Below are positions 2,851-56,500 of a DNA stretch of 64,000 nt, piece by piece (the stretch's first letter is position 1; every line of letters starts with the position of its first letter). The position numbers and the translations under genes were made by a program. Source of the stretch: Octopus vulgaris (Eukaryota); assembly GCA_951406725.2 (NCBI GenBank), contig OX597835.1, forward strand, positions 3,410,001-3,474,000. Reading direction: 5' to 3'. The notes under the pieces are model-generated. The model saw only the letters and a program-made list of their open reading frames with translations. It was not told the DNA's origin and ran no database searches.

Positions 2851-5800
2851 CTAACAGAAGTGAAATGGAAAAGAAACTCAAGTGAATGATACACACAAAC
2901 GCAAAATGTATACACATATTTACACATAATTTCACACATACCTACACATACATAAATTCACTGGCATGCATATTTACACACACACATTTACATATGCCTA
3001 ACACATTTACACAGGTTTATAGAAACACACACAGGCTTACATATATTTACACATACTTCTATACGTGTACACATACATAGACACTCACACACACACATTT
3101 GTACAAACCTACACACAGAAGCATACATATCTATACTTACCTATACACACCTACACATGCACGCACTCACACACCTACACACACCCACAACTTACATGGT
3201 TCCACTCCCCCAACAAACACATCTACAAAGAGCCACTAAATAGCTCCTACATCGTGTCTTTTCCTTCTTTTTTACAATGCTAGTGTAAGGGGTTGAAGAA
3301 GATTTGGCTGTTATTTCTAGCAGTATGCAATACAGAAGGTGACATCTGTTGGTTATGCAAAGATGCGAGGAGGAGGAGGAGGAAGAGGAAACACTGAGTC
3401 CTCTTTCTCCTCGTCCTCCTTCTAAACACTTCATTAACACTCTGCTTTGTGAATGAATTTAGTGTTTTTTACCAGTTGACTTTTATTCTACTACGATGTT
3501 GATTTCACAAGAAGTTGGTGCAGAGGGCAGTAAAAAGAAAACGGGTCAAATATTAGGACCAATATTGGGACCAAATATTGGGACCAAACATTGGGACCAA
3601 ATATTGGGACCAAATATTGGGACCAATATTGGGACCAAATATTGGGACCAATATTGGGACCAAATATTGGGACCAAATATTGGGACCAAACATTGGGACC
3701 AAACATTGGGACCAAATATTGCATACCAGTCAAATATTGGGACCACTGAGTCGTGCCTGGCCAATTAAAACGTTAACAAGTTTTGTTCATGTTCGAACAC
3801 TAACCTTTGCCCAATCATATAATTCTTCCAACAGATCTCGGTCCAAGTCGGAGACTCCAGCATTAAGTAAGAGATCGTCATCGTGTAAGTCTTGCAGGAC
3901 TTCCCAGTAAGGTTGCAAGTGCTTTAATCTTAGTTCATCTTCATCTTCATCTTCACCAAACTCAGCATGCCACGATAGCAAAACAGTTTCTATGTATTCC
4001 ACATCAAGTTCACTGAGAACTGGAATCATAAAGTACAGAAAACAACATTTTGTTTACTGATATATATACGTATATATATATATGTGGATATATTCTTTAT
4101 ATTCTACAATACAAATCTAGTCTAATAGCAGCCAATTCATAAAGCCGAACGGTTTCATGCTGAAGAACGTTCCAAAGGTGGAAAGATAAATTAACAATCA
4201 TCAAGAATAGTTAATGGGAAACCATCATCATCATCATCATCATCATCATTTAGCATCCGCTTTCCATACTAGCATGGGTTGGACGGTTCAACTGGGGTCT
4301 GGGAAGCCAGAAGGCTGCACCAGGCTCCAGTCTGATCTGGCAGTGCTTCTACAGCTGGATGCCCTTCCTAACGCCAACCACTCCGTGAGTGTAGTGGGTG
4401 CTTTTTACGTGCCACCCGCACAGGTGTCAGACGGAGCTGGCAAACGGTCACGAACGGATGGTGCTTTTTACGTGCCATCCATATAAATTATAAATTGACT
4501 GTTATGAGACTATAAGACAAAATAAAATACACATATATATTTATGATATAAATCACACACATACACAGAGTTTAAAGATCCAATAGAGACAGAATCAACA
4601 AAAAAGAACTCCATCCGGTGAGCGATAAATAACAATTTAAATACACAAACGAAAAAGCTACCAATAGTTTCAAGATATGCCTTGTATCTAAAAGCAAACT
4701 TTCAGACCCTGTTTATGCATCTTTATACATCATCATCATCATCATCATCGTTTAACGTCCGTTCTCCATGCTAGCATGGGTTGGACGGTTCGACCGGGGA
4801 TCTGGGAAGCCAGAAGGCTGCGCCAGGCCCAGTCAGATTTGGCAGTGTTTCTACGGCTGGATGCCCTTCCTAACGCCAACCACTCCGTGAGTGTAGTGGG
4901 TGCTTTTTACGTGCCACCTGCACAGGTGCCAGGCGAGGCTGGCAACGGCCACGGTCGGATTGGTGTATTTTACGTGCCACCGGCACGGAGGCCAGTCGAG
5001 GCGGCGCTGGCACTGGCCACGAGTCGGATAGTGCTTTTTACGTACCACCAGACCAGGGATCCTGGCTGGTTCAATTCGATTTCGATTGCCCCATGTTTTA
5101 AAAACAAGCATGCTGGGCAGTAAGAAAATAAGAAAAACACATGTAGAAGGTTGGTGCAAAAAATGGAACGGGGGAAAAAAGACAAAGAAACGAAATGAAG
5201 AAAACTATGATCTTCGTCATCTCTGACACATGCAAGAAAGGAAAAGTGGGCATTAAAACAATGGTGCTGATGGTGCTGATGAGGATAAATAGAATAAAAA
5301 CGAACATGTACCTTTCTCAACTGCATCTCTGACAATTGTCGCAGGTTGATTGTTGTATAAAAATATTTTCACTGCAAAACAAAATAAACTTCTGTATTTA
5401 CCGATTATTTGTGTGTACGCGTGTGTGTGTGTGTGTGTGTATGTACGTACATACGTATGTATGTGTGTGTCATTGTGTTTGTTTACCCATCACCAATTGA
5501 CAACTGGTGTTGGTGCATTTACATCCCTGTAACTTAGTGGTTCAGCAAACAGGATAAATACTAGGCTATAAAAAAACAATTCCTGGGGTTGATTTGTTTG
5601 CCTAAAACCCTTCAAGGTGGTGCTCCAGCTTGGTCACAGTCATATGACTGAAACAAGTAAAAGAATAGAGGAATAATACACAAAATATTTTCACAAATTT
5701 TTCTTGTATACAATTCCTAATAATAAGTAACTATAAAAATAGGATTTTTTAAACATTGAAAGGCTATGAGGGTCCACCCAAGTAAACTAGGAATCAAAGA

Positions 5801-12517: not shown

Positions 12518-13332
12518 CATGAACGACTGTGTGTGTACCGTTGGCGACTTTTTTCCCTCCGTCTTCCCTTCTCTGGATCTTTCATTTTCCTATGCTTCTG
12601 ACGGAGAGCTCCGCTCAAAACGTAAAACCCTCCTTCTTCCCTTCCTTCCTGAGCATCCAATAATATTATATTTGTTCCACGTCCTCGCGTTGTTGTGTTT
12701 TCTCTTTGTGTTTTCATGTATGGATTAACTTTATATATATACATACATATATACATACATTTAGGATCAGAATTGAAATCGATCAATGGAAATTGCAGAT
12801 GTGTTACCAGTGCCGGTGGCATGTAAGAGAACCTTCCGTTTCGCGACCGTTGCCAGCGCCGCCCCGAATGGCCTCGTGCCGGTGGCACGTAAAAAGCACC
12901 ATCCATTCGTGGCCGTTTGCCAGCTCTGTCTGGCACCTGTGCGGGTGGCACGTAAAAAGCACCCACTACACTCACGGAGTGGTTGGCGTTAGGAAAGGCA
13001 TCCAGCCGTAGAAACACTCCCAGATTTGACTGGGCCTGATGAAGCCTTCTGGCTTCACAGACCCCAGTAGAACCGTCCAACCCATGCTAGCATGGAAAAC
13101 AGACGCTAAACGATGATGATGATGATGATGATGATTTACAAATATATATATACATAAATATATATATATACATACATATATATACATATATATATACATA
13201 GATATATATATACATACATGCATACATATATACATACATACATATATATATATACATACATATATATACATATATATATACATAGATATATATATACATA
13301 CATGCATACATATATACATACATACATATATA

Positions 13333-45300: not shown

Positions 45301-46243
45301 GGATGAATCCAAGTCTACGGTAAAGACACTTGCTCCAAATGCCACACGATAATATCAAATTTGTGACTGCAAGTGTTGTGAAAGAAATTGCAAATTTTCT
45401 AAACACAGAACCATATCCATGTCTATTTTTCACACACACACACACACACACATCTATGTAGCAGTAATGTAGATAAACACAATTAGGCTTGATATATATA
45501 TATATGCCGGTGGCACATAAAAAGCACCATCCGTTCATGGCCGTTGCCAGCCTCGCCTGGCCCCCATGCCGGTGGCACATAAAAAGCACCATCCGATCGT
45601 GGCCGTTTGCCAGACTCGTCTGGCACCTGTGCCGGTGGCACGTAAAAAGCACCCACTACACTCACGGAGTGGTTGGCGTTAGGAAGGGCATCCAGCCGTA
45701 GAAACATTGCCAGATCAAACTGGGCCTGGTGCAGCCTTCTGGCTTCCCAGACCCCAGTTGAACCGTCCAACCCATGCTAGCTTGGAAAGTGGACGCTAAA
45801 CGATGATGAGGACGATGATGATATATATAATAAATATAAATAATTAAGAGACAAAACCTCTATTAAGTAATTCAATTAATAGTGAAAGATATTATCTATA
45901 ATAAACCATATAGAAAGATTTTAAATATATTATAATAAATATTATTCTAAAAATCACTAAGTTAAATAAACATATTTCAAATTATTGTTGGGTTTATGAT
46001 ACAGAGTGTAAAGACCAGTAACAAGGTTCAGATTAACATCCAGCTTATCAACTGAATCATGTTCATTTTCTATAGAGCTAGATATACCAAATCTTTTAAA
46101 AAAGTTATCGAATTTTTTCATATATAGGTTTATTTTTCTGTTGGATTGACTATCAATCAAAAATAGTGCATCATCTCTATATAGTCCACCTTTAATGTCT
46201 GGAAATTCATTATAGAAATGATATAGTATGTATGTATGTGTGT

Positions 46244-49934: not shown

Positions 49935-52900
49935 ATATATAAACGGCAGTTTGTCTGTGCGTGTTTCTGTGTGTCTGTTTGCTTGTACCCTCACTCTGAC
50001 CACGGCTTTCAACCGATTCTGATGAAACTTGACACACATAGCCCAATGTCATAATTCAAAACTAACGCAGCGAAAATTTTGAAAAGTTCCCCCAGTTCTG
50101 AAAAAAATCGATAAATTCGATATGGGGTCGAGAATAAAAAAAAACAAACCACAGACTATCTAGGGGACGCAACTCAACCTTTTTTTACTCTCAAAAAAAA
50201 ATTTACCATCATTTTTTTTCCATTTTTTTGCTATTTTTTGGCTATAACTCTCTAAAAATGCTTTATAGTTATTTCCCTTACAAACCTGAGCAACGCCGGG
50301 CGATACTGCTAGTATATATATATATATATATACCTAAAGGTATTTCTGTTCAAAAGACCAATTTATTGGTTCTTGTCAAGCAATGTTTATATCAGGTCTT
50401 TAAGAATGAAATGTTTGATTTTGAACTGAAAGTTTATTTTACTTTATCTCAACAAAAACCAATGCAGTTAATCAAGGTATGCACCTAAATTATTGACACA
50501 ATTTTGCCATTTTATCGGTAGCTTGTTAATGCTGGCAGCAAAGAATTCTGGAGAGCAAGAGGTGATGAAATCATAAAAGGGTGTTTTCGCATCTTCTTCA
50601 GATTTGAAGTTTTTTCCTTGAAAAAAGTTGTCTAATGCCTGGAAAATGTGATGGTCAGTTGGTGCAAGGTCTGGGGAATATGGTGGATGACAGAGTACAT
50701 CCAAGTTTTGTTCCTGTAACTTGCATAGCATTCTTTGTGCAACATGTGGTCGAGCATGGTCTTGCAAGAGAATTGGGATCTTTTCACTTTGACCGGCAGA
50801 TTTTTAAAATAATTTCTTTGTAACTAAACACTTTTAAACTTCGTATACTGGTAGAATGTGTTACATAAAACATCTTTTTCTCTTGGCTTTCTTGAGAAAA
50901 TTCTGTAGTTTGTAAGCTATTTGTTGTTTAATTTCTTGCATTTCGGCAATTTTAACCAATCAATGACGTCTATTGAGGTGAATACAATATCTGCCGTATT
51001 TTGTCAACAACATTTCCTCCTCCTCCTCTAATCATCAATAGTCTGTTGTGGGTTTCAGAGATGAAGACTCACTGAAAAAATTCAGACAGGAGACTAAACT
51101 CAAGCAAAAATTGTTAACAGTTTCCGTGAACGGTAAGTTGAAGATTAAATGAGAAAGGACTTTTTGTTTTTTACTCTAAATTTTTATGATTTATGTTTCT
51201 TTGTTGTTGTTTAGGCCCAGTTTAACCCTTTAACATTTAAACCGGCCATATCCGGCCCAAATGGTCTACCTGTTTCATGTTCAAACTGGCCAGATCCAGT
51301 CTCTCCCACCTACCCTACAATGTCATTCTAAAATTAAATGATTACATCTTCAAAATCTTGAAGCTACAAGATAATACGTAATTAATTTTTTAAAATATGG
51401 ATACACGAACATTACATTTGATAAATTAATCTGAATGCTAAAGGGTTAATCTTGAGCTCAAATTCTATGAAGGTTAACATGGCTTTTCGATGTTCCACTG
51501 CCAATAGATCCAAGTACCAATCTAGAGTGGTCATTTGCTAAAATTGTGAGACCAAAATGCCTTGTGGTGTTTATTCTAATTTTTACATCCTCTGAGCCTA
51601 GGCAGGTGCACGACGAAGTCGTTAGTATCTAATTCATCATCATCATCATCATCATCATCGTTTAACGTCCGCTCTCCATGCTAGCATGGGTTGGACGGTT
51701 TGATCGGGGTCTGGCAAGCCCGAAGGCTGCACCAGGCCAGTCAGATCTGGCAGTGTTTCTACAGCTGGATGCCCTTCCTAACGCCAACCACTCCGAGAGT
51801 GTAGTGGGTGATTTTATGTGCCACCGACACAGGTGCCAGACGAGGCTGGCAGACGGTCACGCTCGGATGGTGTTTTTTATGTGCCACCTACACAGGGGCC
51901 AGACGAGGCTGGCAGACGGCCACGCTCGGATGGTGTTTTTGACAAAAGAAAATTACTTTTGCAGGTTCTTTTGGAAATTCTCATAAAAGAAAAATGGTTT
52001 ATTCCTGACAATCCTGCTTTAAGTTATATAATCCTAAATACAGTATACCAGGACTTCATTATCTCATATGTTTACCATTTTAAAGACATGAGGATGTGAT
52101 CTGAGGGGTGGTTAGGCACTATTTCTAGCTGGTCGAATGACTGCATTGTAGTTTTCTTGTTGCCTTGACACAACACAATTGTTTTTGTTCAGCCCTCAAG
52201 TCAAATGCTTGTTATTCTGTACATCGAAAACTACATTCTAAAACTACTGTGTCTCCTTATTTTTTTGAACATCATGTTGTGATTTCAAAAGGATTTGATA
52301 ATAATAATAATAATAATTATAATAATGAAATTATTGTATACCGTGCTCAGGTGCACCACAACTTGTCAGAAAGTGCGTATAAAGCATATGCAGTAATGTA
52401 CAAATGTCTGGGAAGTGAACAGTGTATGAGTCAGATACATGCCTGCGTGTGTATGGAGGGGAGGAGAAAATCAGGTGTAGTGTTGGCGAATCTCAGGAAG
52501 CATGGAAGTTTTGAAGGATGCAGTGCTTGATTGCTATTTCTGGATATTAGCTACATTTTTAAGTAGACCAGATATGGTTTCAGGGAGAATTAGCTGCTAT
52601 TTCTAGCAGTGACTGTGCAGAAGTTTCCATGACCAAATGATGGTATAATTTTTTTGTAAATTACATTTTCTTTTCTTTTTCTTAGAAATCCCCAACACCA
52701 CAGGTGATGCCCCATTTGGAGTTTATGGGGAATACATGAAAATGATGTCCCGTGAAGAAGCTACTAAGGTAAATAATGTGACAATGTGAGGATCTATCCA
52801 TGATTTTCAAATTTACACCACCAACACCACAGTTCTTCTCTTTATTTCCTTACATGTTTTCTCTCCTTTTTTTCCTAAAAGATTCCTTTTGAAGTAAATG

Positions 52901-53264
52901 CTTCTGAGGCACAAAGCAGTAATTCTCCCTTTGTCCCCATATATGGAATTTGGAACATATGTTCTTTTATCCTTTTACTTGTTTCAGTCATTTGATTATG
53001 GCCAGGTTGGAGCACTTCCTTGAAGGGTTTTAGTTGAAGAAGTTGACCCTAGGACTTACTCTTTGTAAGCGAGCAAGCAAGTGAGCCTGTCTGTGAGTCA
53101 GTGAGTGAGCAAGTCTGTCAGTTTTATTTCAAGATTTCCTGCCAATAGAGAAGGTGCCGGTTTCTAACCTAGATCCAAGTGGTTAAGAGCACGGGCTACT
53201 AACCCCAAGATTCCGAGTTCAATTCCAAGCAGTGACCTGAACAATAACAATAACAATAATAATA

Positions 53265-53297
<33 letters not shown>

Positions 53298-53357
53298 ACA
53301 ATAACAATAATAATAATAACAGTAATAATAATAACAACAATAACAAAAATTAAAATA

Positions 53358-53397
<40 letters not shown>

Positions 53398-53468
53398 CAA
53401 TAACAATAATAATAATAATAATAGTAATAATAGTAATAATAATAACAATAATAACAATAATAATAATA

Positions 53469-53519
<51 letters not shown>

Positions 53520-56500
53520 TCAAAAAATACCTTAGGAATGAGAACCCAGGTTCGAAATTTCCCCAAGACACCTGAAGAAGGCTGGAGGGTATATCAGCCG
53601 AAATGTTGTGTTAACAACAAACAAGATAAGGACAAATGTCCATCGAATGTAAATAATGAACTTTTTTCCTCTACCCAAACGGTTTCCAGTCCTCTGTGTC
53701 ATCTAATTTTTTCTCACCTACAACTTTAATCTTTATGCTTTCCAATGCAGTTCACTGTTCACCAATAAATATACCAAGCCATTCCTGAAAAGTTTAGCCT
53801 GGCCGTCCTGTATACACGCTTCCCCTAACTGGAAAATTTGTTGTTTTATACTGTCTTTATTATAAATCCCTTTTTCTTTGCTCATTATTTTCAGGAACCA
53901 GTATTGACAAAACCACTTCCAAAGCTGGTCCCAATTGAAATTAAAAAGCTGATGTCTAAGGAGAAGTGAGTCATGTGTACATAGATATCACACTGTGTTT
54001 ACGCCCACCACACACACACACACACACACGCACACATGCACACACACATGTGCGCACACACTCACACTCACACACATGTATATCATTATTGTGTTTGTTA
54101 TTACGAGATTCTTGGTATGATATCATGTGCTGAAACAAAAATTGTAATTTGGGAGGTTCATACTGCCAATTAAAACATGCACACTAGCTGTACTTCACTT
54201 TGCTAATTATATCTCCTAGGTAACAAAAGCTATGAGCTTCTAGTGAGTCATCTAGGCATTCAAGAGAGTCTGTTTCCAGGATGTTCCTTGGATGTACTGC
54301 TCCAGTCCATCTATCACATATAGACTTGTTTTCTGCTAGTCTTCTTGTGATTCCATTACATTTCTTTTGTCCATAGCATTGAGTTCAATGTATGGTGTTT
54401 ACACCCACTCCTTTCCTGCATATTCAGTAAGGTCATTTCACTGGAGGTACCAGGGTCCTATCTTTTTACCTACATATCAAAATTTCTATCTTTGTTAAGT
54501 TTACCAGAAGACCTCACGATTCTGCATTTAGCTCTCACGCTCGGAACTTCCTCTATAATTCCTTCCCATAGATTGCCAGTCTTAAATTCCACTGTGATGA
54601 CTTGTAGGACTATGATGGATAGGAGAGGACTGAGGACTGAGCATTGACAGATTCCAACCCTCATGCTAAATTCATCAATAAAGTTGTAGATGAATCTCAC
54701 TTGCTGCATCTTTGTCCACGGCATGTGCAGCAGCTCTCACAAGCCACTCATCAGTGCCTAGTTCTGCTAGTGAGCACCAGTTTACCGTATGTGGTATCCT
54801 GTCAAATGCCTTCACCAAGTCAATGCAAATCAGCGACAATGTATTTTTTCCTGCAGTTGTCTCACTAGAAACATTGCATCTGCAGAACCTCTTCCTGGCA
54901 CAAAACCAAACTGCATTTCATTTAGGTCTACTTTTTCATGGGATCAATCATGCTATGGCTTTCTCTTTGACCTTTGTAGCCCGATCCAGGAGTTTGATTT
55001 CTCTAGTGTTGCTCCCTCTAAGGCATCTCTTTTGCCTTTGTAGTCATCATCATCATCATCATCGTTTAGCGTCCGCTTTCCATGCTAGCATGGGTTGGAC
55101 GGTTCAACTGGGGTCTGGGAAGCCAGAAGGCTGCACCAGGCCCAGTCTGATCTGGCAATGTTTCTATGGCTGGATGCCCTTCCTAACGCCAACCACTCCA
55201 TGAGTGTATTGGGAGCTTTTTACGTGCCACTGGTACAGGTGCCAGACGAGTCTGGCAAACGGCCATGAACGGATGGTGCTTTTTACATGACACCGGCACG
55301 GGGGCCAGGCGAGGCTGGCAACGGCCATGAACGGATGGTGCTTTTTATGTGCCACCGGCACGAGGCCTGTCAGGGCGGCGCTGGCAATGGCCACGTTCAG
55401 ATGGTTCTCTTACGTGCCACCGGCACTGGTAACTCAGCTGCAATTTCCATTGATCGATTTGTAGTAGTTTACAATATTACTGCTTTGCTAGTCATTGAGT
55501 CTTGAGTCTTTCTTGTATAACTTGATTAACTCTCCAGGTAGTGACCATTTACCTTATTATGTCACTGGATACTTTGAGTGCCTCTGCCTCCGTCCCTGTT
55601 GGACTTGCAACTTTCCCTCTGATTGTGTTCTTGACCACCTTACTTACCATGCTGTTGTTAACTTGAATTGCTGATCTCTGAGTAGAGTCAGCATAAGGTA
55701 ATCCCTGTTTATCCTAGGCTTTCTCCCCATTCCACAGCCTCTCACTAAAGGAAACCCACACCACCCTCTCGTCTTCCATATCGATTGGGAGTTTGCCTTC
55801 ATTATACTCATACACTTCTCGCCAATGACATCTGACGCTGTCTTGCGATCCTCAACCCCTCACGCCTCTGATTTTCTTGCTGCAGGACATACACAGGTCT
55901 CTACTTCTCAGTGTGCTTATAGGACTATCGTCTTATGTGATCCTCCTCTCCTTTAATGATAGCAAGGTGTGATACAATAAATGTGACTGATATTTCTAGC
56001 AGGTCAATCAATTGCATAGAGGCTTCTTTAATGGTTTGATTTAAAATTTTGTTATAGTTATTTTCAAAAATGTTCCATCCATGACCATCCCATCTTCTTT
56101 TCAAATGATTTATCGAAGACTCCATTAACCAACATGTCATTTTTTAAAGACAGCAGGATATATCATTAGGAGACATTGACTGCTATTTCTAACAAGTTGA
56201 GCTGTTATCAAGAGGCTTCTTCATTTGGATACTATTGATAATGCTGTTGTTAATGGTGACAGTGATGCTGGTGATGATGATGATGATAAGGAAGCTTAAA
56301 ATTGTTTCTTTATTTTTTTGAGATCGGAGAAGATTTTGGAACTGGAGCAGAAAATTAGGTCCCATTATATCAGGATGCATGAGAGACGTAAAAAGCCAAA
56401 AGGGACGATCGCTGAAGAGGTGGAAGCTACGAAAGAATACATGAATATCGTAAGTGCTTTAATTATCATCGGGGATGTACTCGCATAGCAAGTGATTTGA

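Follow-up and report, generated by a model that had tools for sequence, protein, structure and literature searches.

Short interspersed elements (SINEs) are defined by their use of the enzymes of long interspersed elements (LINEs). The repeat family described here was followed from one copy in a 64,000-nt stretch of the Octopus vulgaris genome (assembly GCA_951406725.2, contig OX597835.1, positions 3,410,001-3,474,000 of the forward strand, G000:C22:3410001-3474000; hereafter the window, meaning that whole stretch). It is probably a tRNA-headed SINE family that depends on another source of enzymes, being copied in trans by the reverse transcriptase (RT) and GIY-YIG endonuclease of Penelope-like elements (PLEs). 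The copy in the window, at 53178-53675, is a dead, 5'-truncated and decayed member of this abundant non-coding repeat.

Among the closest described systems, compared here through those passages of the cited papers that describe them, are the Sm-alpha-like repeats of Schistosoma mansoni, where 2,342 of 2,368 tRNA-Gln predictions were classed as SINE elements resembling Sm-alpha (PMC2770079). The minimal form of the hammerhead, with a short stem III, is that of the W-elements, which resembles the Sm-alpha hammerhead only weakly (PMC8490949). For the minimal hammerheads of PLEs, four features not imposed by the search have been reported, including the existence of families with variation, a G10.1-C11.1 pair and palindromic positions 15.2-16.2 (PMC4209133, Cervera and de la Pena). 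Among endonuclease-bearing PLEs, the insertion of Pen2a of Adineta has been described with a duplication of 9 bp, an 18-bp palindrome, a 'tail' of 31 bp on one of the inverted pseudo-long terminal repeats (pseudo-LTRs), and (AAT)n/(AAC)n tracts as sites of template jumps (PMC3846280). An octopus repeat annotation lists 893 'Unclassified SINE' families, with no mention of hammerheads in its main-text passages (PMC13282606). No literature description was found of a tRNA-headed SINE that joins a minimal PLE hammerhead to a full PLE footprint.

The 2.8-Gb genome (G000) was searched with head and tail queries. The head-seeded search gave at least 1,983 first-look candidates, from which 46 places were scored, the window copy among them, and the reciprocal tail-seeded search gave at least 1,317, from which 27 independent loci were examined. 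The head-seeded locus set comprises 19 non-self loci (20 with the window), and both sets together make 46 loci. The order of the unit is a tRNA-like head, (AAT)n and a tail of 170-190 nt. All 19 non-self head-seeded loci carry the head, a short AAT tract and the tail on one strand. Among the 27 tail-seeded loci, a same-strand head lies just upstream of the seed tail in 17, the seed tail is the headless arm of a pair whose other arm carries the head in two, six are headless and two are odd; head plus tail are found on one strand in 19 of the 27. This co-occurrence bears out the view of the original prediction that head and tail are one element, and the constancy of order and strand across loci therefore excludes chance juxtaposition.

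Unit length is 246-377 bp among the 19 non-window copies, and complete units lie inside one target-site duplication. Tails come in two forms, a short one and a long one with an additional 31 nt. Because the family 3' end bears short AATGTAAAT-type repeats, the earlier description of the element as having no LINE-type tail was too strong; the short form ends in the short tandem repeat AATGTAAATAATGTA(AATAATGTA). The PLE-seeded loci, about 473 kb in all, contain two copies by chance, from which a rough copy number of about 10^4 follows; summed contig word depth divided by flank depth gives 6x10^4 to 2x10^5, a figure that is not a true copy number. PLE coding sequence within 1.5 kb was found at none of the 46 SINE loci (0/19 head-seeded, 0/27 tail-seeded). 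Of 73 flank open reading frames (ORFs) of at least 110 amino acids (aa), two had Pfam matches, to a piece of mariner transposase and to a piece of LTR-element RNase H, and none matched a LINE or PLE RT. The family is short, dispersed, high-copy and non-coding and has target-site duplications, as a SINE does; since it encodes neither RT nor endonuclease, it can be only a dependant and not itself a PLE.

The strongest evidence for the source of the copying enzymes is the insertion footprint, whose features equal those published for endonuclease-bearing PLEs (PMC8557442, PMC3846280). An inverted arm, 5'-truncated to a varying extent, is found no more than 30 nt from the 5' end at 11 of the 19 head-seeded loci, versus 1 of 19 control segments, and pieces of such an arm, 12-31 nt long, are readable in three further head-seeded loci. 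Opposite-strand arms are present at 17 of the 27 tail-seeded loci, and all 17 are head-to-head, none tail-to-tail. In these pairs a full direct copy is accompanied by a second, overlapping arm, and the junction of the arms is an 18-nt palindrome, ATATGCCCATGGGCATAT. Of the 22 pairs in which both 3' ends are visible, 20 have the 31-nt extension on one arm and not on the other (8/9 head-seeded, 12/13 tail-seeded), and none has it on both. In loci L002, L012, L016, L017 and L125 the entire unit, consisting of the arm and the direct copy, sits between duplications of 10-13 bp; target-site duplications overall span 7-13 bp. At L125 (G000:C30:17290174-17293304, approximately 1255-2608), a single 10-bp duplication, AAGCCACCTT, surrounds one head, an inverted arm and a tandem array of six (AAT)n+tail units; these units are 188-197 bp long and differ from one another at several positions. 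The PLE-type footprint of these relatives therefore makes it likely that the family is copied by Penelope enzymes and not by those of a LINE.

The hammerhead motif in the tail is additionally consistent with this assignment. The majority of 20 aligned copies reads GACAC CUGA(A/U)GA A GGCUGG-loop-CAGCC GAAA CG U U GUGUU. Contigs of four public sequencing runs were also compared with the window, with majority letters given as a share of depth: U occupies N7 in about 76-82% of depth in the contigs of all four runs, and C occupies position 15.2 in 59-80% of depth in those of the three large runs. The family form thus carries an unpaired nucleotide between 9 and 10.1, the G10.1-C11.1 pair and a palindromic 15.2-16.2, and is variable at the free core position N7. 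By sequence, the family majority is an intact Penelope-type minimal hammerhead with a predicted cleavage site. A strict minimal-hammerhead descriptor gave 4 matches in 536,713 background bases and none in each of 20 block shuffles. Most copies of the family are decayed, chiefly at the two CpGs of GCCGAAACG. When two natural copies were paired in RNAcofold, the prediction was of two hammerhead-like halves formed between the molecules instead of the expected helix III dimer, a result uninformative on dimer cleavage.

At the other end of the unit, full-length 5' ends carry box A TGGCGTAGTGG, followed at a tRNA-like spacing of 33 nt by box B AGTTC(A/G)ATTCC. Box A agrees at 11 of 11 positions with the box A consensus. 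No run of four or more T is present in 14 of 20 element spans, and in five of the other six the run lies within the last 7-15 nt. The boxes, their 33-nt spacing and the T4-run-poor body suggest use of RNA polymerase III (Pol III).

Under the proposed mechanism, Pol III would initiate at the head and transcribe across the T4-free body, and the tail would serve as a cis signal recognised by PLE enzymes. Template switching in PLE-type priming would account for the inverted arm with its palindrome, for the tandems and for the extension on one side only; the hammerhead would probably be carried along in a borrowed 3' module and not cut the SINE RNA. A bolder formulation, for which the balance is about even, is that the family represents a SINE class that parasitises PLEs and not LINEs. 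Here a tRNA-type Pol III head and a PLE 3' module would have been joined at an (AAT)n template-jump site, the minimal hammerhead would be part of the RT/GIY-YIG recognition signal, and the 10^4 or more copies would constitute a record of PLE integration.

PLE RTs are very common in the genome, with at least 5,495 first-look candidates and open frames of up to 994 aa. The PLE sample, about 100 places from several families with a few overlaps, was drawn in four sets: 30 RT-seeded loci (L021-L050); 20 places with PLE RT matches, 15 of which have open frames 595-994 aa long (L051-L070); the 3' region of one PLE in 30 copies (L071-L100); and, for diverged PLEs, 20 downstream flanks (L101-L120). These places were scanned for the tail by blastn, by an nhmmer tail profile and by 2-mismatch motif scans. 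The only tails found belong to two separate SINE copies lying close by. One of these, in L070, lies 300 bp behind a PLE endonuclease remnant and was considered as a sign of a partner; it was rejected as coincidence because 0 of 29 other copies of that PLE 3' region bear the tail, their common 3' sequence being a different one. The minimal hammerhead of the SINE family was not found in any sampled coding PLE. In those PLE loci to which the strict descriptor was applied it matched once, in another repeat at L054, and a relaxed hammerhead scan of the flanks of the 15 open-frame PLEs recovered only this same unrelated repeat. In the window itself, a PLE RT fragment of 87 aa (45969-46229, minus strand), 49% identical to residues 532-618 of a 994-aa open PLE frame, lies 7 kb from the SINE copy and is unconnected with it. 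It had been offered as a hint of a partner; as one of the many RT candidates in the genome, it says nothing specific.

Two observations made during these searches concern neighbouring subjects. The L070 locus contains, at 4623-5787, two head-to-head PLE fragments, one of RT (aa 532-669, minus strand) and one of the endonuclease region (plus strand), which abut at about 5045 and exemplify the inverted PLE arrangement in coding copies. The L054 repeat is a second hammerhead-bearing repeat, about 210 bp long and (TA)n-flanked, also present in the window at 12525-12732 with 93.8% identity to L054:3120-3330. Its L054 copy has an intact minimal hammerhead at 3192-3226, with the extra A and ACGU, and is separate from the coding PLE beside it; the window copy is decayed, with A9 changed to G and G12 to A.

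Several results weigh against copying by Penelope enzymes or against the identity of the parts. None of the roughly 100 sampled PLE places, out of the at least 5,495 candidates, shares the tail, the head or the terminal motifs. The search covered PLE places and no LINE 3' ends, and a LINE partner is conceivable; in its short repeats the short-form end AATGTAAATAATGTA is similar to the tails of certain LINE/SINE pairs. As a tRNA the head is a poor match: ARAGORN at default settings called 0 of 19 loci and none in the window (at an 85% threshold it called 6 of 19, as tRNA-Ser(ACT)), and the Rfam tRNA model had no match at E<=10 in the window, the 19 related loci or a 301-nt full copy. In the window no Rfam family of any kind reached its gathering score. 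Rfam hammerhead models gave no match at gathering score or at E<=10 in the window, the 19 related loci or the full copy alone, and the strict descriptor was passed by only 1 of about 30 SINE copies in the 20 head-seeded loci (L007). Finally, 5 of 20 copies (L002, L006, L008, L013 and L015) share a 3-nt deletion between GAAACG and TGTT that leaves G at position 17. By their sequences, these copies may be a subfamily that spread with a dead ribozyme, or may reflect recurrent slippage; if they are a subfamily, cleavage competence would be unneeded for spread.

Every copy has sequence on both sides of the predicted cut, and the 5'-truncation points of the arms are not clustered there. Together with the G17 deletion, these observations suggest that the motif is carried in a borrowed 3' module and does not process the SINE RNA, and the ribozyme processing envisaged in the original prediction accordingly finds no support. 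Its broader proposal, a tRNA-SINE parasitising PLEs, gains from boxes A and B, the PLE-type hammerhead and the PLE footprint, and lacks a PLE that shares the tail in the places sampled.

Some stringent LINE/SINE pairs end in short tandem repeats, as the short-form end AATGTAAATAATGTA(AATAATGTA) does, and the family could on this ground be an ordinary LINE-dependent tRNA-SINE with a tail from a LINE 3' end, an incidental hammerhead-like motif and arms made by LINE-type template switching. The failure to find a PLE bearing the tail would fit this explanation, as would the standing of LINEs as the largest transposable element order in an octopus annotation (PMC13282606). Twin priming, however, yields non-overlapping parts of one copy, whereas here a full copy is joined by an overlapping arm. 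The motif moreover fits four hammerhead criteria specific to PLEs (PMC4209133), and no LINE RT occurs among the 73 flank ORFs. Dependence on a LINE is unlikely in the face of these observations.

The six tandem units at L125 bring to mind a retrozyme-type element, in which dimeric hammerheads would cut tandem transcripts, the products would be circularised and then reverse-transcribed, and the tRNA-like head would be a passenger. Minimal hammerheads are thought to act as dimers (PMC4209133), and retrozymes have been proposed as PLE dependants (PMC7761336; bioRxiv 10.64898/2026.07.22.740005). A tandem is nevertheless seen at only 1 of 46 loci, the borders of the unit fall at the head and the tail end and not at the cleavage site, the 5'-truncation points of the arms are scattered, and the head is present with most copies, all of which leave a retrozyme cycle quite improbable.

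Because the tail behaves as the terminal repeat of a PLE would, forming tandems, inverted arms and extension, the unit might instead be the pseudo-LTR of a common protein-coding PLE and not a separate SINE. This is very doubtful, given that PLE coding sequence lies within 1.5 kb at none of the head-seeded or tail-seeded loci, that head or tail is part of the element in none of the PLE places sampled, and that the 246-377 bp units are complete inside one target-site duplication. A chance meeting of unrelated tRNA-like and hammerhead-like fragments at a microsatellite is refuted by the same head-AAT-tail order and strand in 19/19 and 19/27 independent loci.

Of these explanations, copying of a tRNA-headed SINE by PLE enzymes thus accounts best for the family, and the window copy can be read as a degraded product of that process. 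Its parts, all on the plus strand, are as follows.

53158-53164 (+): candidate left target-site duplication, CGGTTTC; weak, a 7-nt match to 53680-53686
53165-53177 (+): 13 nt between candidate duplication and element, without alignment to the 5' end of the SINE family
53178-53242 (+): tRNA-like head, 5'-truncated, 65 nt, 97-100% identical to 45 other scored places
53178-53182 (+): box A remnant AGTGG, the last 5 of 11 box A positions
53193-53205 (+): anticodon-like arm ggg/CTACTAA/ccc, inside the head
53215-53226 (+): box B-like gagttcaattcc, inside the head
53243-53517 (+): (AAT/AAC)n tract, 275 bp (TRF: period 3, 91.7 copies, 85% matches)
53518-53675 (+): tail module (nhmmer with a 20-tail profile, positions 2-174 of 189, E = 2.4e-54)
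53567-53612 (+): minimal type I hammerhead motif, decayed, 46 nt (minimum-free-energy fold, family majority and the criteria described in PMC4209133)
53680-53686 (+): candidate right target-site duplication, CGGTTTC; weak, the longest string common to both flanks

All 45 other scored head matches begin exactly at 53178. Full-length relatives extend upstream of AGTGG as ...TGGGCATATGGCGT, completing box A TGGCGTAGTGG, and the contigs of the four runs depart from the window at exactly the same position, reading ...GGGCATATGGCGT. The window copy is therefore 5'-truncated, with at least 14 nt and half of box A gone, and with half of box A missing it could not be a source copy. The Pol III-like head of the original prediction accordingly stands as to its anticodon-like arm and B-box, its 'A-box' reducing to the five remaining positions. 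The AAT tract, foreseen at about 280 bp and found at 275, is far longer than the few tens of nt in most other head-seeded copies. The 3' segment, thought to be unique, is the conserved tail of the same repeat and is 95-98% identical to 44 other scored places. The 7-nt candidate duplication is not significant alone, about 0.16 chance matches being expected at such a length by our own estimate, and an inverted arm beside the window copy was looked for and none was found.

The hammerhead of the window copy has a helix I of 5 bp (53567-71/53608-12) and a helix II of 6 bp (53580-85/53594-99), with CUGAAGA at 53572-78, an extra A at 53579, GAAA at 53600-03 and a predicted cut after 53607. The minimum-free-energy fold of the 46 nt consists of exactly helices I and II, leaving CUGAAGAA and GAAAUGUU unpaired (z = -2.0). 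G 53580 pairs with C 53599 (G10.1-C11.1) and an extra A follows A9, as in the family majority. Positions 15.2-16.2 read AUGU, a palindrome broken by the T at 53604 where the family majority has ACGU and the three large runs have C in 59-80% of depth; at 53576 the window has A where the contigs of the four runs have T in about 76-82%. The motif originally placed at 53567-53612 is thus confirmed in its fold and in its intact family majority, with the copy itself altered at 53604.

The junctions between the window element and its flanks are spanned by contigs that carry the labels of two other organisms (B and D), which points to an old insertion common to related organisms. In a contig of run X15, position 52766 is followed directly by 53893, with GT..AG ends and 1,126 nt skipped, and the SINE copy therefore lies within an intron of a plus-strand transcript. 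Other high-copy repeats flank it at 52962-53070, 53118-53176 and 53687-53780, with summed contig depth of up to about 3 million at 52935-53028; the repeat at 52962-53070 also occurs in several loci and within the N-terminal stretch of one PLE frame.

Some non-coding elements, namely retrozymes and Chlamys derivatives, are already known or proposed to depend on PLEs, yet the cited passages on them describe no Pol III head. If the proposed dependence is true, SINE biology extends to a third retroelement class, and thousands of short, easily aligned insertions become available for the study of PLE arms, palindromes and one-sided extension. Such insertions, each preserving a fold-back arm, a junction palindrome and a one-sided 31-nt extension, would form a natural high-copy record of how PLEs integrate, and the role of the minimal hammerhead, as cutter or as recognition fold, would become testable.

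Among known systems, the family is like Sm-alpha/Sj-alpha of Schistosoma, which are likewise short, non-coding and very abundant SINE-like retroposons with both a tRNA-like part and a type I hammerhead (PMC2770079). Unlike Sm-alpha, with which it is compared by description only, the octopus motif is the minimal PLE form and lacks a helix III hairpin; no description of a PLE insertion footprint for Sm-alpha was found in the relevant passages of PMC2770079 and PMC8490949. Its hammerhead is shared in form with those of PLE pseudo-LTRs, which have the CUGANGA...GAAA core, unpaired nucleotides between 9 and 10.1, G10.1-C11.1, a 5-bp helix I, palindromic 15.2-16.2 and thousands of dispersed copies. 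It differs from the pseudo-LTR hammerheads (PMC4209133) in following a tRNA-like head within an independent unit 246-377 bp long, and in being absent from the sampled coding PLEs.

Metazoan non-LTR retrozymes are, like the octopus family, non-autonomous, hammerhead-bearing and proposed to be PLE-dependent, and 'could be regarded as' SINEs (PMC7229834; PMC7761336; bioRxiv 10.64898/2026.07.22.740005). Retrozymes are nonetheless tandem repeats with canonical hammerheads and circular RNAs, whereas the octopus family is dispersed as single units that have a tRNA-like head and borders away from the cut site. Chlamys derivatives such as MRC1 are also non-coding, and those of MRC1 type share PLE 3' ends and form pseudo-LTRs or head-to-tail multicopies; in contrast to the octopus SINE, they belong to green algae and have neither a tRNA-like head nor a canonical hammerhead (PMC8557442).

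A further comparison is with endonuclease-bearing PLE units (Pen2a_Av, PMC3846280; Naiad/Penelope, PMC8557442). Unlike these elements, the octopus SINE is without an RT or endonuclease ORF, and a Pol III-type head replaces the pseudo-LTR with its TATA and initiator (Inr) motifs. Like them, it has an inverted 5'-truncated copy at its 5' end with a palindrome at the junction, a one-end extension (31 bp here, 30-40 bp in the range described), duplications (8-10 bp in the elements described), partial tandems and an association with (AAT)n/(AAC)n.

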